Below are positions 5,605-42,297 of a stretch of DNA of 64,000 nt, piece by piece. The DNA comes from a virus. Where the stretch lies: positions 1-64,000 of IMG/VR virus record IMGVR_UViG_3300048924_000619. One strand, 5' to 3'. The first letter of the stretch is position 1; the number at the start of each line of letters is the position of its first letter. The position numbers and the translations under genes were made by a program. Below the pieces are notes generated by a model that worked only from the letters and a program-made list of their open reading frames with translations, had not been told where the DNA came from and did no database searches.

Positions 5605-5860
5605 GTCTACCGGCAGCCCTGCGATGCTCCTCCTTAGACGGAATACCACCCGAACGGGTACATTTACTCAGGCTCAGCCTTGGCTGTGCCCTGCGGATAG
5701 CTCCGCTTCGTTAGCGTTAATCCGGGATTTCTCGTCTACCGGTCGACTTTATCCAACCCTGGAAAAGTGTGGTTCGAAGACCCACGCTCTGGTTGCGACG
5801 TTCGACCGCACACGCGGAACACCCCTTAGGTTACGTGCGCGGCGCGAATCTACTGGTAGC
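5605..5860. promoter_or_regulatory. Three degenerate TCTACCGGTAGA operators in divergent intergenic region
   Basis: GTCTACCGGCAG 5605, GTCTACCGGTCGAC 5734, ATCTACTGGTAGC 5848. Confidence 0.6.
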
Positions 5861-5871
5861 GGTGCGAATCA

Positions 5872-7095
5872 GTGACCGCTCCGGAGGACGTTCTCACCGT
5901 CTGTGACGGAATCGGGGCGGTGCATGAGGCGTGGTCGCCGCTGGGTTGGCGGTTCGTTCTCAGCTCCGAAATCGATGCTTTCCCACGCGCAGTCCTCGAG
6001 CAGCGCCAAGGCGCCGTCGATGCGCGGCTGACCGGCGTCGTCTGGCGGGGCTTGCCCCTTTGGGGCGATTTCACGGCAATTCGGGTGCGCCATTTGCGCC
6101 GGTTGGGCGTGACGCTTCCCTCTCTGCTGGCGGGCGGTACGCCCTGCCAGGCGTTCAGCGTCGCTGGCCTCCGCGAGTCCCTCGCTGATGCTCGCGGCAA
6201 CCTCACCCTCCAGTTCGTGAAGTTGGCCAATGCAATTGACGCTGTTCGGGTCCGAGCCGGCCTCAAGCCCCTCGTCATCGTCTGGGAGAACGTCCCCGGA
6301 GTCCTCAGCGTCGACGACAACGCCTTCGGCTGTTTCCTCGCGGGCCTGGTGGGAGCAGAAGCCCCCCTCGTTCCAGGCAAAGGACAGCGCTGGGACGACG
6401 CGGGTCTGGTTGTTGGGCCGCGAAGGGTCGCGGCGTGGCGCATCCTCGATGCTCAATACTTCGGCTTGGCCCAACGACGCCGCCGTGTGTTCGTTGTCTC
6501 AAGTGCTCGTGAAGGATTCGATCCCGCCGGGGTACTTTTTGAGCCCGAAGGCCTGCGCCGGCATTCTCCGCCGAGCCGAGATGCGGGGGGAAAACCTGCC
6601 GGCGACGCTCCGGTTGGCCTTGGAGTCGGCGTCGATCGTCCGTCAACGATAGCCTTCTCCAACAAGGATCATGGCCAGGACGCGGCCTTCGACCTATCGC
6701 CCACGCTGCGGGGCGGCAATGCGATCGAGCATGCCAACGCGGGCGTGCCACCGGCTATCGCATTCGCGCTGCGCGGCCGCGATGAAGGCGCCCTCCCGGA
6801 GGTCCACGGCGACGGCGACACGGTAGGCACGCTGCGCGCCGCCGACGGCGGGTCAAGCCGGGATTACGTGGCGGCCTCGGCCGTCCGCCGGCTCATGCCG
6901 GTCGAGTGCGAGCGCCTACAGGGCTATCGCGACGGCTACACGGCCATCGTCTGGAAGGGCCGGCTGCCGACGGAATGCCCGGACGGGCCTCGCTACAAGG
7001 CGCTCGGCAACTCCATGGCTATCCCCTGCATGCGGTGGATCGGCGAGCGCGTAGCGGTCGAAGAGACCCGCCGTCTCGCGGAGCTGGCGGCATGA
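5872..7095 (+). CDS. DNA (cytosine-5) methyltransferase
   Basis: Motif I 'VCDGIG', IV 'GGTPCQAFS', VI 'WENVPG', VIII 'AQRRRRVF', IX 'RRLMPVECERLQG', X 'YKALGNS'. Confidence 0.95.
   Translation: MTAPEDVLTVCDGIGAVHEAWSPLGWRFVLSSEIDAFPRAVLEQRQGAVDARLTGVVWRGLPLWGDFTAIRVRHLRRLGVTLPSLLAGGTPCQAFSVAGLRESLADARGNLTLQFVKLANAIDAVRVRAGLKPLVIVWENVPGVLSVDDNAFGCFLAGLVGAEAPLVPGKGQRWDDAGLVVGPRRVAAWRILDAQYFGLAQRRRRVFVVSSAREGFDPAGVLFEPEGLRRHSPPSRDAGGKPAGDAPVGLGVGVDRPSTIAFSNKDHGQDAAFDLSPTLRGGNAIEHANAGVPPAIAFALRGRDEGALPEVHGDGDTVGTLRAADGGSSRDYVAASAVRRLMPVECERLQGYRDGYTAIVWKGRLPTECPDGPRYKALGNSMAIPCMRWIGERVAVEETRRLAELAA
6230..6652 (+). CDS. Nested out-of-frame ORF resembling M.EcoHK31I beta-type subunit
   Basis: 'CSLSQVL...YFLSPKACAGILRRAEMRGENLPATLRLAL' in an alternative frame within the MTase gene. 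Confidence 0.55.
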   Translation: MQLTLFGSEPASSPSSSSGRTSPESSASTTTPSAVSSRAWWEQKPPSFQAKDSAGTTRVWLLGREGSRRGASSMLNTSAWPNDAAVCSLSQVLVKDSIPPGYFLSPKACAGILRRAEMRGENLPATLRLALESASIVRQR

Positions 7096-7571
7096 GCCCC
7101 GGCCAATTCGCCCGCAAGTGGTATCGCCTGGACGCCCGCTTCCGCCAGCTGGTCGCGGAGGGCGAGCGGCCGGCCGAGATCGCTCGGCGCCTGGGCGTGA
7201 CCCTGTCGGCAGTCCGCTGCCGGGCGTCGGTGCTGGGCCTGAAGCTGAACAACGAGCCGGTGGCGCGCCCTGACCGCGCTGGGTCGCCGGCGCCGAACGT
7301 GATCCCGCTGGTCGAGCGCGCCATCGCCGAGGATCCGGCTGCCGCCCCGCCCGCGCGGGTCAAGCGCTCGGCCTGGCCGCTGCACGTCGCCGCCTACGTC
7401 GCGAACGTCGAGCTCAACTGTTCCACCCGGTCCGTCGGCCTGCTGATCGGTCGTGACCGGAAGCTCGTCCGCTACGCGGTGCGCCAGATCGAGGAGCGCC
7501 GCGACGAGGACCCCGCATTGGACGCCTTTTTGGATCGCCTCGGTGAGCGGGCGCGGGAGTTGGCCGCGTGA
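7092..7571 (+). CDS. HTH protein: GcrA-like N-terminal HTH fused to DnaA C-terminal-like HTH
   Basis: ATG 7092 overlaps MTase stop; 'LVAEGERPAEIARRLGVTLSAV..RASVLGL' and 'HVAAYV...VGLLIGRDRKLVRYAVRQIEERR'. Confidence 0.65.
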   Translation: MSPGQFARKWYRLDARFRQLVAEGERPAEIARRLGVTLSAVRCRASVLGLKLNNEPVARPDRAGSPAPNVIPLVERAIAEDPAAAPPARVKRSAWPLHVAAYVANVELNCSTRSVGLLIGRDRKLVRYAVRQIEERRDEDPALDAFLDRLGERARELAA

Positions 7572-13146: not shown

Positions 13147-14373
13147 TCAGCCCTTGACGCAGACGACCTGTCTGAGCGTGCTCACGATCTCAACGTGGTC
13201 GGCCTGGGCGGCCATCACGGCGTCGATCGACTTGTAGGCACCGGGCGTCTCGTCGATCACGTCGGCGTCCAGCCTGGCCTCAATCCCCCGCATCGCTACG
13301 GCGTGATCATCAAGAGTGAACCGGCGCTTCGCTTCGTTGCGGCTCATCGCCCGGCCGGCGCCGTGAGAGCATGAGCAGAAGGATTCCGCCAGCGGCGCGC
13401 CGGCCTTGCCGCGGACGATGAACGACTTCGCGCCCATCGATCCAGGAATGATCCCCAGCGTCTCGGGCGTAATCCGGACCGCGCCCTTGCGGGTGAGGTA
13501 GACGTCCTTCCCGAAGTGCTTCTCCTGGGCGACGTAGTTGTGGTGGCAGTTGACCGCCTCGCTGTCGCAGAAGAAGGGCTTGGCAACCGTGGCCTGCAGC
13601 GCGTCGACGGCGGCGCCCATCATCAGCGTGCGGTTGGCCTTGGCGAAGCGCTGGGCCCAGGACACCGCCTTCATGTAGTCGTTGAAGTGCTCGGTTCCCT
13701 CCGGGAGGTAGGCGAGATCCTGGTCCGGCAGGTTGACGAACCACTTCCGCATGTCGGCCTTCGCCAACTCGATGAAATAGGAGCCGATCCGGTTGCCGAT
13801 GCCGCGCGAGCCGGAGTGCAACATGATCCAGACCCGATCATCCTCGTCGAGGCACACCTCCACGAAATGGTTGCCGGTCCCAAGCGTACCGAGGTGGTTC
13901 GGCGCCTTCTCGGCGGCACGGGAGATCTTCGGATGTTTGGCGACGATGTCGGCCATCTCGCCGACGAGCGTCATCATCACCGTCGCGGCGGGCGACTGCA
14001 CTTCGCCCCAGGCGCCGCGGTCGCCAGTCTGGCCATCGTTGGTCCGGCCGTGGGGGATTCGCTTCTCAATGGCCGTCCGCAGGCCAAGCAGGTTGTCGGG
14101 CAGGTCGGCCGCCGTGAGGCTGGTCCGCATGGCCATCATCCCGCAGCCGATATCGACCCCGACGGCCGCCGGAATGACCGCGCCGGTCGTCGGGATCACA
14201 GAGCCGACGGTAGCGCCCATGCCCCAGTGGACGTCGGGCATGATCGCGACGTGGCGGTGGATGAACGGCATGGCCGCGATGTTGTCGAGCTGGGCGCGCG
14301 CGGTCTCCTCGACCTGAACACCTTCGACCCAGGCCTTGATGAGACCTCCGCGGCTACCTTGGATCACCTGCAT
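13147..14373 (-). CDS. rtcB: RtcB RNA-splicing/repair ligase
   Basis: MPDVH, VGVDIGCG, GTLGTGNHFVE, HSGSRG, HHNY, RKGA, PGSMG, SHGAGR. Confidence 0.97.
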   Translation of the reverse strand: MQVIQGSRGGLIKAWVEGVQVEETARAQLDNIAAMPFIHRHVAIMPDVHWGMGATVGSVIPTTGAVIPAAVGVDIGCGMMAMRTSLTAADLPDNLLGLRTAIEKRIPHGRTNDGQTGDRGAWGEVQSPAATVMMTLVGEMADIVAKHPKISRAAEKAPNHLGTLGTGNHFVEVCLDEDDRVWIMLHSGSRGIGNRIGSYFIELAKADMRKWFVNLPDQDLAYLPEGTEHFNDYMKAVSWAQRFAKANRTLMMGAAVDALQATVAKPFFCDSEAVNCHHNYVAQEKHFGKDVYLTRKGAVRITPETLGIIPGSMGAKSFIVRGKAGAPLAESFCSCSHGAGRAMSRNEAKRRFTLDDHAVAMRGIEARLDADVIDETPGAYKSIDAVMAAQADHVEIVSTLRQVVCVKG

Positions 14374-34264: not shown

Positions 34265-34960
34265 ATGGCGGAGGCGTCCCCCGATCTGAAAGACCGGATC
34301 CTCGCGGAGATCGCGGCCCATGTGCGCGTCTACGGGCGCACGCAGTGGGACCGCGTCCGCGAGCGGCCGGAGTTCGCGCCCATCATCGGCAAGGAGTCCG
34401 GGGCCGGCGGCCGGCGGAAGTTCTTCCGCTGGGTCGACGTGGTCTGCGCGCCCCGGCCGGATGACGCCGTCGGCGCCGGCCGGCCGCATGAGGGGCGGGA
34501 CGTCGCCGCGGAGGCGCTGAGCGATGCGCAGCGGCGCGCGCTGCTCGCGGCCCAGAAGAACATCCCGGCCGCGCCGTCGCCGTCGTACATGATGCGCAAG
34601 GGTGCCCAGGCGGAAAACCAGATCAACTTCCTGGCGATCGTGCACGAGCTGATGGCCGACGTCGGCAAGCTGCGCGGAATGTCCGTCGTCGCGGACGAGG
34701 CGGCGGCTGACGGCGAGCGGGTCAAGAATCCGCACCTGTTCGGCCAGGCGATCGACAAGCGGCTCCGCGTGATGGAGACCGCGCTGAAGGTCATGCAGGA
34801 AATCTGGGACCTGCAGTACCAGCAGCGGTTCTACGACGAGATCACTGAGATCATCGTCACGGAGCTGGCGGCGATCCCTGACGTGCAGGAGCGCGTCATC
34901 CGGCGCCTCGCTGACCTGAACAACCGGCGGGGCATGACGCTCTACGCCGAGCCGACCTGA
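34265..34960 (+). CDS. Probable terminase small subunit
   Basis: Helical protein coupled immediately upstream of terL. Confidence 0.55.
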   Translation: MAEASPDLKDRILAEIAAHVRVYGRTQWDRVRERPEFAPIIGKESGAGGRRKFFRWVDVVCAPRPDDAVGAGRPHEGRDVAAEALSDAQRRALLAAQKNIPAAPSPSYMMRKGAQAENQINFLAIVHELMADVGKLRGMSVVADEAAADGERVKNPHLFGQAIDKRLRVMETALKVMQEIWDLQYQQRFYDEITEIIVTELAAIPDVQERVIRRLADLNNRRGMTLYAEPT

Positions 34961-37062
34961 TGGCGGGCCGGCCGCCGTCGCCATTCAACCGCCGCAAGCC
35001 GCGCCCGATCCCGCAAACGGACGCGCTGTCGGCGGCGATCGCCCAGCTCGAGGCGCGCACCGGGCACAAGGTGACGCCGGACCAGAAGGCGATCCCGGAC
35101 GGGATGACGTTCCGCCAGTGGTGCGAGAAGCTCGGGGCCGAGGGCCTCGAGGTGGACGGCAAGCCGTTCACGCTCCACGACCGGCCGGCGATGGCCTGGA
35201 TCTACGACCAGATCCCGTCGACGGCGGACGAGGCCTACAACCTCGTGCTCGTCCTGATGAAGTGCGCGCAGGTCGGGTTCACCGTCATGGAGATGCTGGC
35301 CACGGTCTACCTGGGGCTCAAGTTTGGGCCCTGCACGGTCGGCATGTTCCTGCCGGACATCAACTTGGCGGGCATGAAGTCAACTGAGCGCTTCATGCCC
35401 ATCATCCGGTCGATTCCGGATGTGCACGCGCTGATGACGCAGGACGCCGCCGACGGCTCCGGCAAGAAGCGGGGCGAGGGCAACGTCAACCGCCGGCGCA
35501 TCGCCAAGGCCCTGTTCGTCTTCTCCTGGACGTCCGGCAAGGCGTCGACCGAGTCCGTCCCGATGGACATCCTCTCCTTCGACGAAGTGCAGGAGATGAC
35601 GAAGGAGCAGCTGGAAAAGACCCAAGAGCGCCTGAGCGCCTCGCCGGTCCGCTTCACGCTGATGGGCTCGACGGCCAACTGGCCAGACGAAGACATCCAC
35701 TTCTGGTACAAGAAGGGGTCGCAGCACCAGTTTCACACCGAATGCCCGACGTGCCGGGTGAAGAAACCGCTCGACGACTATTTCCCGAGGTGCATCCAGT
35801 GGGATGCGGCGCGCCGGGTCTATCGCTACGTCTGCGAGGCCGGACATTGGATCGACGACCCTCAGATCGGCGAGTGGGTGGCCTTCAACGAGGAGGCTGA
35901 CCCGGCGATCGACTACACGATCCCGAAGAAGCACTGGCCGAAGCGGATCCGGTCCATCCACTTCCCCCAGTTCCTGTCGCCGACGATCAGCGCCTCGGAC
36001 ATGATGACCGCCTACAACGAGGCGAGCGACCTCAAGAACTACCACAACCGGAAGCTTGGGAAGCCGTTCCTCGACCCGACCGTCACGCCCGTGACGCTCG
36101 AGCATTGTGCGCGCGCCGTCGAGCTCGGCCGCGCCGCCGGCGTCCAGTGGAAGACTCGGGCGCGCGGGACCTTCATGGGCATCGACCAGATGGGCCAGTT
36201 CAACGTGCACATCATCAAGGAGCGCCTGCCCGACGGCCGCCAGGCCGTGATCCACTACGAGGAGACGTACGCGGAGGATCCGTTCGCACGCTCGAGCGAG
36301 CTCATGGAGGCCTACGGCGTCCAGGCCTGCGTCGTCGAGATCAACCCGAATTTCAACGACGCGCACAAATTCGCGAAGCGCCACCCGGGCAAGGTGTTCC
36401 TCTGCGACGGGTTCAAGGCGATCGAGGGCGACATGATCGTCTGGGGCGACGGGCCGAAGCTCGACGTATCGGACCGGCGAACCGATGAGGACTCACGGAC
36501 GCGCTACACGGTCAAGGCCGACCAGTACAAATGCATGCAGACGTCTCTCGCGCGCATCGTGAAGGGCCACTGCCTGTTCCCGGACCCGAAGGAGCTTATC
36601 CAGGAGGTCGTCGACAAGGGCGTTCGCCAGCTGGTGCCCATCCTGCCGCGGCTGTTCCTGCACTTCACGCGCACGGCGCTCGTCGCCGAGAAGGACAAGG
36701 AAACCAACAAGTACAAGCGCTCCGTCAAGAAGGTGGGGCTGGATCCACACGGTTCGTACGCTAACCAATTGTGCGACGTCGCCTGGGCGCGGGCCCACGG
36801 CACGGCGAGCTTCATCCTCCCGGAGACTGGCGACGTGGCAACTGATCAAGCTAAGCAATCTGCCGAAATGGGCATGGTCGGCCTTCCGAACCACGTCGTC
36901 AGCATGCTCAACGACCTGCCGCCTGGCGTCTGCGGCCGCTGCTCGGCCTATCCCTTCGGCGACGACAACGGGCCGCCGGCGCGCGGGATGTGCGCGGAGC
37001 GCGGGTTCGAGGTCGCCGCGGCGGATCCGGCCTGCCCGATGTTCGCGGCGGTCGAGGGCTAA
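34960..37062 (+). CDS. terL: Terminase large subunit (lambda GpA-like)
   Basis: 'KCAQVGFT' Walker A, 'SFDEV' Walker B, 'MGST', CPTC, 'FMGIDQ' nuclease. Confidence 0.9.
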   Translation: MAGRPPSPFNRRKPRPIPQTDALSAAIAQLEARTGHKVTPDQKAIPDGMTFRQWCEKLGAEGLEVDGKPFTLHDRPAMAWIYDQIPSTADEAYNLVLVLMKCAQVGFTVMEMLATVYLGLKFGPCTVGMFLPDINLAGMKSTERFMPIIRSIPDVHALMTQDAADGSGKKRGEGNVNRRRIAKALFVFSWTSGKASTESVPMDILSFDEVQEMTKEQLEKTQERLSASPVRFTLMGSTANWPDEDIHFWYKKGSQHQFHTECPTCRVKKPLDDYFPRCIQWDAARRVYRYVCEAGHWIDDPQIGEWVAFNEEADPAIDYTIPKKHWPKRIRSIHFPQFLSPTISASDMMTAYNEASDLKNYHNRKLGKPFLDPTVTPVTLEHCARAVELGRAAGVQWKTRARGTFMGIDQMGQFNVHIIKERLPDGRQAVIHYEETYAEDPFARSSELMEAYGVQACVVEINPNFNDAHKFAKRHPGKVFLCDGFKAIEGDMIVWGDGPKLDVSDRRTDEDSRTRYTVKADQYKCMQTSLARIVKGHCLFPDPKELIQEVVDKGVRQLVPILPRLFLHFTRTALVAEKDKETNKYKRSVKKVGLDPHGSYANQLCDVAWARAHGTASFILPETGDVATDQAKQSAEMGMVGLPNHVVSMLNDLPPGVCGRCSAYPFGDDNGPPARGMCAERGFEVAAADPACPMFAAVEG

Positions 37063-38200: not shown

Positions 38201-38752
38201 ATGTTCCCTGTGCTGCCGATCTGGCTCGCGCTGCTGTTATCCGCCCTATTCATCCCCCTGTTCAGCTTCTCCGACCGCGAAGTCGGCGACGGCAAAGAGG
38301 GACTCGTCTCACGCGTCCCGGCCATGGACATCGCCATCATCGGCGGCGGCATCCTCGGCGTCCTGGCATTCGGGCCGTCATTCGTCGCGGTAGGCGCGCT
38401 CTGGGCCGCAAGCCGGTCGATCGGCTTTGGTGACGGGGACCTCGACCCATCGACCCTCAAGGACGCGCTCCAGTGCGCCAAGCGCTACGTGATCTGGCTT
38501 CCTCTGTCGCTGCAGGCGTATTGGCGCGGCGACGACTGGCGGTTGCTCGCTGGGCCCCTGGCCGTGGCGATTGTGCTGATCATGCTCATGCGCCTGCACT
38601 TCGGCGCGATGACCCGCATGGCCCGGGCCGGCGGCTATGCACTGGTGGGCGACGAGAACGCCATCATCGAGAGGGTCGGCGGCGGCGTGTTTGGCGCCGC
38701 GCTCTTCGCCTACGGCCTGCTGAGGTCGGGCTTGCTGCACCTTCCAGGGTAG
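38201..38752 (+). CDS. Multi-pass membrane protein
   Basis: Four to five hydrophobic segments. Confidence 0.65.
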   Translation: MFPVLPIWLALLLSALFIPLFSFSDREVGDGKEGLVSRVPAMDIAIIGGGILGVLAFGPSFVAVGALWAASRSIGFGDGDLDPSTLKDALQCAKRYVIWLPLSLQAYWRGDDWRLLAGPLAVAIVLIMLMRLHFGAMTRMARAGGYALVGDENAIIERVGGGVFGAALFAYGLLRSGLLHLPG

Positions 38753-38816
38753 CGCGGGAACCTCCGGGTATACGGGGGACATGGGGTTGAGACGGCCGCT
38801 GGGGGGAGGGTAGCTT
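38753..38816 (+). promoter_or_regulatory. Sigma70-like promoter of RNA island with upstream 10-bp repeats
   Basis: TTGAGA(38787)-N18-TAGCTT(38811); CGCGGGAACC/TCCGGGTATA/CGGGGGACAT. Confidence 0.65.
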
Positions 38817-38822
38817 CCTCTC

Positions 38823-38899
<77 letters not shown>

Positions 38900-38929
38900 A
38901 TTCGCCCTTTCAGGGCATCCGAGATGCGG

Positions 38930-39294
38930 ACCACGCTCGAATAGGTGGCAATCCCTCCGGGGCCTGCGGACCGAAAGACTGGCGAGCATGGCGCTAAAGG
39001 CAAGCTTCTGGCCCGCGCCGGCTGAAAGGCCGGCAACAAGATCCCGTGCGAACGGGGCGCGCTTGATGGGAGGCCCGCGGAAGGGCCGAACGTAGCACCC
39101 CTAGTAGGCCGGCCCCGAGGCGGTTCGGGTGCCCGTTGGCGCCGGCGGTTACGGCGTCAGAGGCCCAATGGGCCGCAGTTGGTGGAAGCCCGGCGCCAGT
39201 TTCGCCCCTTCGGGGCGTCCGATGCGTCTTGTTGCAGGTGCAAGAGCCGGCTGCGGTTGCCCGACGGGGCCACCTAGCGAGTGCCGGACGTGGT
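38930..39294 (+). ncRNA. Unidentified ~365-nt multi-helix structured RNA
   Basis: Nested long-range helices plus GNRA/UUCG-type hairpins (see findings). Confidence 0.65.
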
Positions 39295-39344
39295 TGGTGG
39301 TTTGGTCGCCCTAGGCGGCCTCGTCCGCCAGCGATCAAAACCTG

Positions 39345-39674
39345 AGGGGTTAATGGGCGGTCACCGACGGGAGACCGCCCAAGACTTCCAAATGAGAATT
39401 CGCCCTTGCAGGGCACACAAGCTTTGGTTCGGACCCGGGTGCAATTCCCGGCGGCTCCACCCAAGCCCATCGACCGCCGCGAGAGCGGGCGGCGCCCGGA
39501 GCGAAGGGGCGTTGATGCTAACGGGACGATGGGCTTCGGGGGGCCGATCAGGATCGACGAGCCAGGGGCGCGGTGAAAGCCGCATTTGATAACTCTGAAC
39601 GACAACTATCCCATCGCTCAGGCCATCGCGGCCTAGCAGGAGCCCGGCGGGGGCTTGGCAACAGAACCCCGCCA
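39345..39674 (+). ncRNA. ssrA: Circularly permuted (two-piece) tmRNA
   Basis: Acceptor piece ends GGACCCGGGTGCAATTCCCGGCGGCTCCA (39459); coding piece starts GGGGCCGATCAGGATCGAC (39540); G3.U70; tag LNDNYPIAQAIAA* 39595-39636; GGCAACAGAA 3' motif; 5' boundary approximate. Confidence 0.92.
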
Positions 39675-39774
39675 CCCAGAGGCCTAGGCGGGCCAACCGA
39701 TCACCGAAAGGGACCACGGCGGCGCCGATCGTGGCGACTCCCCCGGCCGGTTGGTTCGACCCTAGGCCTCTGGG
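39675..39774 (+). ncRNA. 100-nt rod-like RNA closed by a 14-bp perfect stem
   Basis: CCCAGAGGCCTAGG/CCTAGGCCTCTGGG then CGGGCCAACCG/CGGTTGGTTCG. Confidence 0.5.
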
Positions 39775-40520
39775 CCAACGAGAAGACCGACAGCGCGCCA
39801 GCGTACCAGTCTTAGTAAATGGGTGAATCTGGTGGGAGCCTGACCGCTCCCGTTCCTGAGGGCTGGGGGGGAAGCGATTGATCGTCGCTGATACCGAAGC
39901 TCAAGGGCGACAAGATCAGGTTGGCTAGCCCGAACGCGCCGCAGCACCGCCGGCGCCAGTACGGAGGTCCCGGACCGGTTGCGCGTGCTGGCGCAGCCGC
40001 GGAATCCCCGCCCATCGTGGCTTCGGCCTTGAACGTGGGAAAGTCACCCCGGCTGCGTTCCACGCGGTCGGGCAGGCCCTTCCGGGGGATCCTGATGACC
40101 GGGGCATGAATTCGCCCGAACGGGCAACAGAGGTCTGTGCCGACAGACGGTCAGGGGCGGCCCCCGCGAGGTTTCGACTTCAGCGACGGGATCGTAAGTC
40201 CTTGGGCATCGGCCCGTGCGGTGTGCCGGCGGTTATCCGGTTGTCCGGGGGCAATTGACTGAACCCCCTCAACAAAGCTGTCAGGAGTTGCGCCCGAAGG
40301 GGCACACGAGTTGTCGGCGGGGAGGCGGTTAGCGCCGCTTCCAGCCAAGGTTGGCCAACCGGGTCAATGCTCTGCGCAGGGCGGCGACCTTAAGCGTGAA
40401 TGGCATCGCGGTTCGAGTCCGTGGCGCGCACATGGCAACCGCCGGCGAAACCATCTGGCGGCGGGGCATCCGAGCTATCGGAGTAGGGCCCCGCCGCTGG
40501 GGCAGACTTCCCCCGCCCCT
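39775..40520 (+). ncRNA. Further structured noncoding RNA(s), including a T-loop element
   Basis: GCGCAGCCG/CGGCTGCGT, GTCTGT/ACAGAC, CCCCCG/CGGGGG, CGCGG-TTCGAGT-CCGTG (40407), GCGGCGGGG/CCCCGCCGC; no credible ORF. Confidence 0.5.
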
Positions 40521-40529
40521 CCCAATTCG

Positions 40530-40552
40530 GTCGTGACGCCAGTATCGGCGCA
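40530..40552 (+). promoter_or_regulatory. Late promoter, leaderless start at portal ATG
   Basis: GTCGTGAC-gcc-A-gta-T-N6-ATG. Confidence 0.75.
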
Positions 40553-42297
40553 TGGCCGACAATCCCGCCGCCGTTGCGACAGATCCGAACGCGCCCGCGT
40601 CGGAGCGCCACGACGCGCAGGCTGAGTTCCAGAAGTCGCACGGCACGGCCGGGATCGCGTCCGAGCTGTTTCCATCCGCGGCGATGGAGCCGGTCATTGC
40701 CCGGATCCAAGAGGTTCTGTTCGAGCAGGATCTCAACAAGGCCGCGCAGGGAAACCTGATCGTCGGCCCCTGGAAGAACAAGCGGCCGCAAGACGGCGGC
40801 CAGTCCGTCTTCCTCGACAATTTCCAGATCCAGACGCAGGGCCCCTACTGGGATCGGCCTGGCGTCCTGGGCTTCGACGCCATGCGGTCGATGGTCGAGC
40901 AAACGCCGATCCTCAACAGCATCGTGCTCACGCGCATCCGCCAGGTCCGCCGCTTCTGCCGGCCGCGGATGGGCAACACGGGCCCCGGCTTCGTGATCGA
41001 ACACGTTGATCCGCAGGTCGAGCTCAACGACGACCAGCAAGCATCGATCCAACGCCTGACGCAGTTCGTGATCAACTCCGGTTGGGAAACGGACGCCAGG
41101 GCCCGCAAGCGCAAGAAGCGCGACCCGTTCGCGGCGATGATGGCGAAGCTCGTGCGCGACACGCTCACGATGGACGCCTGCCCGATCGAGACCGAGTTCA
41201 AGCGGTCGCGGAGCCTGGGCCTGGACGGTCTCTATGCGCTGGACGGCGCCACGATCCGCCTGTGCACCGAGGAGGGCTACAACGGTGACGACGAGTTCTT
41301 CGCCCTGCAGGTCATCCAGGGCAACATCCGGACCGCCTACACCTACGACGACCTGATCTATGAGGTGCGGAACCCGCGCACCGACGTGACCGCCTGCGGC
41401 TACGGCTACTCCGAGACGGAGATGCTGATCCGCATCGTCACCTACCTGCTGAACACGATGACGTTCAATGGGTCGTTCTTCGACAAGAACTCGATCCCGC
41501 GCGGCATCCTCAACGTCTACGGTCAGTTCACGAACGAAGACGTCGCGGCGTTCAAGCGCCAGTGGAACGCCATGGTTCGCGGGGTCCAGAACTCCCACAA
41601 CCTGCCCGTTCTGGTTTCCAAGGACCAGGAGTCCGGGACCAACTTCACCGAGGTCGGCGGCCAGCTCAACGAGATGGCCTTCGGGAAATGGCTCTCCTTC
41701 CTGACGTCGATCGCGTGCGCGATCTTCGGCGTCGCCCCCGAAGAAATCTCCATGGAGTCGTTTGCCACGACGAGCCGCGGGCTCGGCGGGAACGACACCG
41801 AGGAGAAGCTCGTCTCAGCGAACGACAAGGGCCTCGTGCCGCTGCTCAACTTCGTCGAGGACATCTACTCCGATTTCATCCTCCAGCCCTTCTCGCCGCA
41901 GTACCGGCTGACCTTCAAGGGCCTCGACGATGAGGACGAGGACAAGCGCTGGGAGCGTCAGAAGCTCTCGCTCACCTGGAACGAGGTGCGCGCGGTCGAC
42001 AGCATGGACCCGATCGATGGGCCGCTGGGCGACGCGCCCATGAACCCCACGCTGATCGGCATCTGGGCTCAGGAGTCCGGCGTCGGCCAGCCAGAAGAGC
42101 CGGAAGAGGACTTCGGCGACCCGGACGCCGCCGGCGCCGATGATGGCGTGCCCGCCAGCGGAGAGCTGGAGGCAGGCCCGCCCGAACAGCAGACAGAAGA
42201 CGCAGGCGCGCCGGATCTCGGTTCGCCTGCCGGCGGCGACGAAGTGGCCAAGGCCCTCGATTTCGGCCTGCCGATCTACGTCCTCGACCTGTCGTGA
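40552..42297 (+). CDS. Phage portal protein
   Basis: 'LVRDTLTMD..DGATIR..NPRTD..GYS.TE..FFDKNSIPRGIL..FKRQW..EM.F..W..IFGV.PEEI'. Confidence 0.9.
   Translation: MADNPAAVATDPNAPASERHDAQAEFQKSHGTAGIASELFPSAAMEPVIARIQEVLFEQDLNKAAQGNLIVGPWKNKRPQDGGQSVFLDNFQIQTQGPYWDRPGVLGFDAMRSMVEQTPILNSIVLTRIRQVRRFCRPRMGNTGPGFVIEHVDPQVELNDDQQASIQRLTQFVINSGWETDARARKRKKRDPFAAMMAKLVRDTLTMDACPIETEFKRSRSLGLDGLYALDGATIRLCTEEGYNGDDEFFALQVIQGNIRTAYTYDDLIYEVRNPRTDVTACGYGYSETEMLIRIVTYLLNTMTFNGSFFDKNSIPRGILNVYGQFTNEDVAAFKRQWNAMVRGVQNSHNLPVLVSKDQESGTNFTEVGGQLNEMAFGKWLSFLTSIACAIFGVAPEEISMESFATTSRGLGGNDTEEKLVSANDKGLVPLLNFVEDIYSDFILQPFSPQYRLTFKGLDDEDEDKRWERQKLSLTWNEVRAVDSMDPIDGPLGDAPMNPTLIGIWAQESGVGQPEEPEEDFGDPDAAGADDGVPASGELEAGPPEQQTEDAGAPDLGSPAGGDEVAKALDFGLPIYVLDLS

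Follow-up and report, generated by a model that had tools for sequence, protein, structure and literature searches.

The spacer between tRNA-Met and tmRNA in a provirus is probably a chain of small RNA modules, one of them an uncatalogued motif shared among phages

Introduction

The tRNA regions of phages are usually annotated as tRNAs and empty spacers, and the locus described here raises the question of what such a spacer may hold. The window that we analysed is a stretch of 64,000 nucleotides (positions 1 to 64,000 of IMG/VR record IMGVR_UViG_3300048924_000619) and is included in a 94-kb provirus record, the DNA of which matches root-metagenome runs. Among the runs listed as matching the sequence of interest none was an RNA run, and no natural variants were seen in four root-metagenome DNA runs, at low depth. 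Between a tRNA and a tmRNA of this window, the original prediction had placed one ornate RNA of about 365 nt (38930-39294), with paired ends, multiple junctions and the scale of a ribozyme. Is this stretch one closed RNA, a row of smaller ones or a GC-rich spacer with chance hairpins? On the evidence of its relatives, we give a probability of about 0.7 to the reading that it is a modular chain, in which the first unit, module 1, is a real and uncatalogued RNA motif.

Results

The 365-base stretch belongs to the front part of a gene-free RNA island of 1.8 kb (38753-40551), located between the GpA-type large terminase gene (34960-37062, terminase GpA domain) and the portal gene (40552-42297, PF04860), whose start codon marks the end of the island. 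The island is co-directional with both genes, all features of the window are given on the plus strand unless stated otherwise, and no terminator-like sites were found on the plus strand of the island. Its order is tRNA-Met, spacer hairpin H1, module 1, module 2, hairpin H2, module 3, hairpin H3, a two-piece tmRNA and further modules, and the stretch spans three of these units, with the small hairpins as dividers.

The first RNA of the island is a tRNA-Met (CAU) with encoded CCA at 38823-38899, called by ARAGORN and matched by the Rfam tRNA model with 63 bits. Its sequence looks initiator-like and is close to bacterial initiator tRNA, but by our own reading it pairs A1 with U72, and the foot of its anticodon stem has two G-C pairs only. 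The two-piece (permuted) tmRNA, missed by ARAGORN and found by Rfam (RF04321, 58.6 bits; RF01849, 48.3 bits), is matched from 39417 to 39636, up to the stop codon of its tag; the tag frame reads ...NDNYPIAQAIAA-stop at its end, with the stop at 39634-36 (own reading). The tmRNA probably extends past the matched part to about 39790, and a perfect 14-bp inverted repeat (39675-88/39761-74) is present in the region 39417-39790. Two-piece tmRNAs encoded by phages are on record (PMC9004378).

Sequence comparison of the remainder of the island (39790-40551) gave two more spacer-type hairpins, a hairpin element shared with the relative L111 and a T-arm-like segment. The shared element (40243-40279, 37 nt; GGGGG...CCCCC, then AACAAAGCU) is 92% identical to L111 5624-5660 and is probably another shared RNA module. 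The T-arm-like segment (GCGGUUCGAGUCCGUGG, about 40409-25, within 40380-40440) lies just 5' of the portal gene; no tRNA was called there, and the segment may be a tRNA-like or truncated tRNA module.

Three near-identical hairpins, at 38900, 39200 and 39398, were the only strict matches to the form (A/U)UUCGCCC-triloop-GGGC on both strands of the 64-kb window, with looser copies at about 40110 and 40290. H1 (38900-38923; direct repeat family D1 and pattern scan) consists of AUUC, a stem (38904-08/38912-16) with the loop UUC and a linker AUCCGAG, which ends in a conserved AG; such a helix-plus-linker arrangement also precedes module 1 in relatives. H2 and H3 were recovered from the repeat family and by pattern scan as well. 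H2 (39199-39218; AGUUU, stem 39203-08/39212-17, loop UUC) lies inside the predicted 365-nt RNA, and a hairpin of its type is also found 3' of module 2 in L093. H3 (39398-39416; AUUC, stem 39402-06/39410-14, loop UGC) is directly 5' of the tmRNA. The same kind of hairpin frames modules in relatives.

All ten helix strands on which the original prediction was built sit at the coordinates that it gave, namely ACCACG 38930-35/CGTGGT 39289-94, TAGGTGGC 38942-49/GCCACCTA 39269-76, GCAACAAGAT 39033-42/GTCTTGTTGC 39226-35, GCACCC 39095-100/GGGTGC 39127-32 and TGGCGCCGG 39137-45/CCGGCGCCA 39190-98. The four hairpins that it listed are likewise present, and the minimum-free-energy fold of the 365-nt stretch uses most of the listed pairs. 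The energy of this fold was -192.8 kcal/mol, compared with -185.6 +/- 6 kcal/mol for dinucleotide shuffles (z = -1.2; 11 of 100 shuffles were as good), and the minus strand gave z = -1.8. The prediction had held that an energy no better than that of shuffles would speak against it, and with z = -1.2 the energy is at this level.

The expectation of covariation in homologs held for part of the structure: compensatory changes were present in modules 1 and 2, and the outer helices had no counterpart in any relative. The GAAA-capped hairpin was strongly supported by relatives and the GGCCC-N6-GGGCC hairpin moderately; the CUUCGG-capped stem proved to be one of the recurring set of spacer hairpins. 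In place of the GCACCC/GGGTGC and TGGCGCCGG/CCGGCGCCA helices, L093 and L129 have other pairings. The 5' part of the stretch (38924-38985) is more complementary to 39218-39300 than shuffles are (-60.9 vs -49.7 +/- 4.8, p ~0.02; p = 0.006 against genomic 83-mers). Comparison does not support this complementarity between modules 1 and 3: L093, the closest relative, shares the 5' sequence and has no 3' partner for it, and in L046 the corresponding pairing is no better than chance (p = 0.23). It is mildly unusual, specific to the window and unaccounted for by a purely modular reading. We regard the original prediction as partly confirmed: a structured RNA is present, and a single closed fold of 365 nt was not confirmed.

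Module 1 (38924-39037) was defined from alignment A1 with RNAalifold, from about 25 members and from covariation statistics, and scores 115.9 bits with model R1. In the window, P1 (38924-27/38986-89, AUGC/GCAU) is followed by a junction of GGA (38928-30) and CGA (38983-85) enclosing P2 (38931-82), then by the near-invariant 24-nt strand GGCGCUAAAGGCAAGCNUCUGGCC (38990-39013), P3 (39017-23/39028-34) with its GAAA loop (39024-27, U-GAAA-G) and the tail AAC. The window thereby shows the defining arrangement of the motif, P1 directly 5' of GGCG.UAA.GGCAAGC..C..GCC and then a hairpin, GNRA-capped in most members. In the layout common to members, an upstream helix (a small hairpin or the acceptor stem of a tRNA) and a 2-7-nt linker, mostly ending in AG, lead to a P1 of 4-8 bp, a junction, and a P2 varying in sequence and length; the junction is commonly formed by GGA before P2 and by CGA or UGA after it. 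The 3' strand of P1 passes at once into the conserved strand, after which come a 1-6-nt linker, P3 and a tail of CAAC or CAC. The GGA/(C/U)GA junction could, as a guess, form tandem sheared G-A pairs that would bend P2 back to the core.

The covariation of P1 and P3 carries the case for module 1. With the 5' boundary of P1 set partly by eye and by complementarity, and anchored by AG or tRNA CCA in most, not all, members, P1 was paired in 96 of 96 cells over 24 sequences, which hold 11 four-pair combinations (12 overall) and more than one Watson-Crick type at all four positions. Sliding the 5' strand by 1-3 nt left only 9-32 of the 96 cells paired, and permuted partners reached the observed value in 0 of 2000 trials. 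L085 and L091 (GUGC/GCAC) differ from the closely related L096 (AUGC/GCAU) by a double compensatory change, and the combination ACGC/GCGU is contributed by phage Mwe-JY13. P3 shows 17 distinct stems in 24 sequences, its loop being mostly a GNRA closed by U-G, and the G-U pairs in P1 and P3 are compatible with the plus strand only. These statistics were drawn from anchored sequences because the CM-made alignment A3 and the MAFFT alignment A4 misplace the 5' strand of P1 in several members. The evidence shows module 1 to be a conserved RNA motif, about 80-130 nt long and absent from Rfam, that folds independently.

Other readings of the same segment were rejected. The helix GCGGACC/GGCCCGC, chosen by the minimum-free-energy fold, has uncompensated breaks in L093, L087, L089, L090 and L098. 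A GCU/AGC hairpin within the 24-nt strand is not claimed, given uncompensated changes at positions 5 and 6 in L093, L113 and Mwe-JY13, and a short peptide was dismissed because the frame has a stop at 38942 and is shifted in L087.

Relatives chosen by their portal gene (L002-L004) were without the module 1 RNA, and among the 80 loci chosen by their terminase gene strong copies were present only in L045 and L046, with a divergent one in L040 and nothing significant in the rest. A 54-nt piece is common to the window, L045 and L046 at 87% identity. Patterns made from it were run on three collections, a looser pattern on the viral collection and blastn on the cultured-phage collection, yielding in total about 25 distinct phage or prophage loci. 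The prophage hosts are Xanthobacter autotrophicus, X. agilis and Phenylobacterium ferrooxidans, and the cultured Microcystis phage Mwe-JY13 carries the module just 3' of its terminase gene. L094, L097, L102, L118, L123 and L124 were discarded as chance pattern matches in unrelated or coding sequence, and the plasmid collection gave no match. The pattern found 5 stretches in 185,579 species genomes, 4 of them true; with the motif nearly absent from these genomes, an attP or integration core is unlikely. Module 1 was present in 2 of 151 Caulobacterales genomes (the known host of L093 and a weak match of 29.9 bits), in 0 of 150 genomes of other Alphaproteobacteria, and as a single copy in each of 5 near-complete phage records.

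About half of the module 1 loci have a tRNA or tmRNA on the same strand. Adjacency to a tRNA similar to that in the window was observed in L090, L096, L112, L113, L115, L120 and L125: P1 begins 2 nt after the CCA of tRNA-Met in L112, L113 and L115 and 24-25 nt past the tRNA CCA in the window, L090 and L096, and a tRNA-Thr is directly 3' of the module in L120. A start codon lies within about 45 nt 3' of the invariant strand in L109, L119, L117 and L127, so module 1 stands alone there; it is found without the other modules at more than 20 loci. It is always co-directional with the flanking genes and is near packaging genes in the window, L093, L119 and Mwe-JY13; in L119 the ORF next to it is followed by an HNH gene and then the portal gene. 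This distribution shows that module 1 has been exchanged among unrelated phages. Allowing <=3 mismatches, four host genomes contain no twin of the 24-nt strand and no complement to it, which disfavours a mimic of a host RNA and, for the complement, long antisense pairing.

Several loci of this survey have features of their own. L107 of Xanthobacter agilis has a second, divergent copy (1501-1615, 30 bits) that keeps P1 (GCGC/GCGC), the 3' half of the core and P3, with GGCGCUAAAGGCAAG replaced. The ORF right 3' of module 1 in L109 (3360-4010, minus strand) and L119 (2717-3364) ends in a PEP-CTERM sorting motif, which is unusual in a phage gene adjoining portal. L099 (1-1497) carries, in this order, a complete tmRNA of the alphaproteobacterial type (87 bits), module 1 and tRNA-like segments, which at 1347-1448 give a weak YrlA-like score of 21 bits. 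L003, a portal relative without module 1, has GGUCAGGUCCGGAA in its pre-portal gap (5817-5850); this resembles the conserved motif of SRP (4.5S) RNA and has no Rfam match.

Module 2 (39038-39199) is a multi-hairpin RNA of roughly 160 nt, with homologs at L093 6866-7036 and L129 118-296 and no match in the phage collection. It contains the GCGA-capped hairpin, a hairpin at 39071-86 and the conserved segments CCCCUAGUAGGCC and CCCGAGGCGGUUCGG. In L093 it lies 3' of module 1 with about 170 nt inserted between them, and in L129 it occurs alone, behind promoter-like sequence and without module 1. The consensus fold, from three sequences only, has 48 pairs, 7 of them with compensatory change, and keeps the hairpin around CCCGAGGCGGUUCGG and two variable hairpins. 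On these three sequences, module 2 is a second and narrower RNA family. A looser look-alike of module 2 (GAUCCC and a GNRA hairpin) is present in L085 and L087, with a spacer hairpin between it and module 1 in L087.

The L093 locus, a prophage of Phenylobacterium ferrooxidans, has a gene-free RNA island of 1.5 kb (5790-7280) from a tRNA-Met to the portal gene. Within it are several spacer hairpins, modules 1 and 2 and a T-arm-plus-acceptor fragment; a weak tRNA (33 bits) is scored at 7097-7165.

Module 3 (39218-39397), for which the evidence includes the inverted repeat I8 and the duplex test, contains a 12-bp hairpin (39354-81) and, in its first 80 nt, the 3' strands of the three outer helices. 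Searched with blastn, neither the fetched loci nor the phage collection contained a match to it.

At gathering threshold, the 4227 models of Rfam 15 report only the tRNA and the tmRNA in the window. At E<=10, 38700-39900 gave only noise on the stretch (10.9-17.6 bits against thresholds of 37-181) and nothing on 38924-39397, and six other module 1 members gave nothing on the motif at E<=5. With no Rfam match at E<=10, no conserved reading frame and compensatory changes in relatives, the stretch was rightly predicted to be non-coding, structured and outside Rfam. The earlier statement that signatures of RNase P, group I and group II introns are lacking was also borne out: no type A or B bacterial RNase P model matched, the P4 core sequences (GAGGAAAGUCC..., ...ACAGAA...) are absent from the stretch, no intron model matched, and the flanking tRNA and tmRNA are intact. 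GOLLD and ROOL models had no match, YrlA (Y RNA-like) had none in the window, and the 94-kb record encodes no Ro/TROVE domain. A full-length RtcB RNA ligase gene is present at 13150-14292 on the minus strand (417 bits). The suggested tie of the RNA to phage RtcB is unsupported: this phage has RtcB, and 0 of 5 near-complete phages with module 1 do.

Discussion

In this study, the stretch between tRNA-Met and tmRNA is read as a modular chain. We propose a tentative model for how such a chain may work. The absence of terminator-like sites on the plus strand suggests that the island would be transcribed as one precursor. As in tRNA operons, host RNases might then cut this precursor where A/U-rich sequence flanks the spacer hairpins and release small stable RNAs. 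In module 1, the invariant strand and the P3 loop, GNRA-capped in most members, would form a surface that some conserved component of the host recognizes, probably a protein or an RNA-protein machine; we infer a host target because the accompanying phage genes differ widely and the 24 nt do not. Pairing with a long antisense partner is disfavoured, because the strand has no complement at <=3 mismatches in the four host genomes. These processing and host-factor steps we hold to be less likely than not, well below the modular reading itself.

Module 1 may instead be a cis-acting leader, by put-like antitermination or as a riboswitch, that controls the downstream late or structural genes. This would fit its constant orientation with the flanking genes, its place about 45 nt 5' of a start codon in four loci and its proximity to packaging genes in the window, L093, L119 and Mwe-JY13; a conservation independent of phage proteins suits host RNA polymerase as the target, and a riboswitch attached to a phage tmRNA has been described (PMC9004378). 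However, the window has no terminator-like sites on the same strand downstream, no alternative terminator/antiterminator pairing was seen, and at many loci the next element is another RNA module or a tRNA, not a gene. We consider a leader function unlikely.

A still less likely proposal is that module 1 represents a new functional RNA class, either a ribozyme that cleaves itself or processes tRNA ends or an RNA that addresses a core machine of the host as aptamer or decoy, which would be passed among alphaproteobacterial phages as a single-copy cassette with the 24 invariant nt as its active or binding site. In a related reading, which we find improbable, module 1 would resemble the HDV-like theta ribozymes in function and, by cleaving itself or by guiding an RNase, would define its own 5' end or the 3' end of the tRNA upstream of it. 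The distance of P1 from the tRNA CCA (2 nt in L112, L113 and L115, 24-25 nt in the window, L090 and L096) and an invariant core typical of catalytic RNAs agree with this, and theta ribozymes most often adjoin tRNA-Met (PMC10879173). Against it, no Rfam ribozyme model, the HDV family included, matched any of 7 members at E<=5-10. P1 can be as short as 4 bp; by our own reading, P2/P1.1 pseudoknot partners are not evident, there is no P2 partner after P3, and no double pseudoknot can be drawn. About half of the members have no nearby tRNA and are located before ORFs. Moreover, the tRNAs here encode CCA, unlike most tRNAs associated with theta ribozymes (PMC10879173).

One closed, ornate RNA of about 365 nt, its ends paired by ACCACG/CGTGGT, is very improbable. 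The listed pairings are present in the sequence and the minimum-free-energy fold draws on them, and the complementarity of the 5' part to 39218-39300 exceeds that of shuffles, but the fold energy (z = -1.2) is ordinary, L093 keeps modules 1 and 2 without the 3' partner strands of the closing helices, two inner helices are not retained in L093 or L129, the complementarity in L046 is at chance, and a recurring spacer hairpin (39203-39217) lies inside an RNA whose parts occur separately elsewhere. A spacer that is GC-rich, forms hairpins by chance and encodes no functional RNA, for which the shuffle-level fold energy and the lack of relatives of module 3 would speak, can practically be dismissed, being contradicted by the near-invariant 24-nt strand with covarying P1 and P3 over about 25 otherwise dissimilar loci and by the conservation of module 2 with compensatory changes, and is possible for module 3 alone.

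On the modular reading, this spacer holds at least one RNA motif where annotation would leave it empty. Its 24-nt strand varies hardly at all between phages whose packaging genes are unrelated, which points to a host target that they share. Module 1 adds a clean family, short, single-copy and with clear helices, to the few known structured RNAs of phages, and it occurs in named strains of Xanthobacter and Phenylobacterium as well as in a cultured phage. Seemingly large ornate phage RNAs can be concatenations of small units, which affects the search for such regions and their modelling.

Among known systems, GOLLD and ROOL are also phage-borne structured RNAs, often beside tRNA genes and of unknown function; they are single conserved folds of 500-800 nt, whereas the chain described here consists of separately occurring units of 80-180 nt. 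The put antiterminator RNAs of phage HK022 are short, cis-encoded and protein-independent stem-loops. Like them, module 1 has conserved unpaired bases that could address a host machine, but its sequence and layout are dissimilar and downstream terminators are lacking here. Theta ribozymes share with module 1 a site directly behind phage tRNAs, tRNA-Met being the commonest; theirs are phages of Bacteroidota or Bacillota hosts, whereas the hosts here are mainly Alphaproteobacteria and the tRNAs encode CCA. Phage Melnitz encodes a permuted tmRNA of the alphaproteobacterial type with tRNAs and a glutamine riboswitch element (PMC9004378). The combination of a phage permuted tmRNA, tRNAs and an extra structured RNA element is thus common to both, but the extra element of Melnitz is a glutamine riboswitch and module 1 matches no riboswitch model. 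In kind, not as a homology family, the stretch is placed like the stable RNAs of T4-type tRNA clusters: on its strand, a tRNA-Met precedes it by 25 nt, the tmRNA follows it, and no terminator-like site is present. The tRNA gene cluster of phage T4 has small stable RNAs, species 1 and 2 and RNAs C and D. Both cases present non-tRNA structured RNAs of unknown function among phage tRNA genes of the same strand, presumably cut by host RNases from a common precursor; they have no relation in sequence or structure, and the locus described here differs from T4 in its tmRNA, its location between terminase and portal genes and its modules, which are swapped among unrelated phages.
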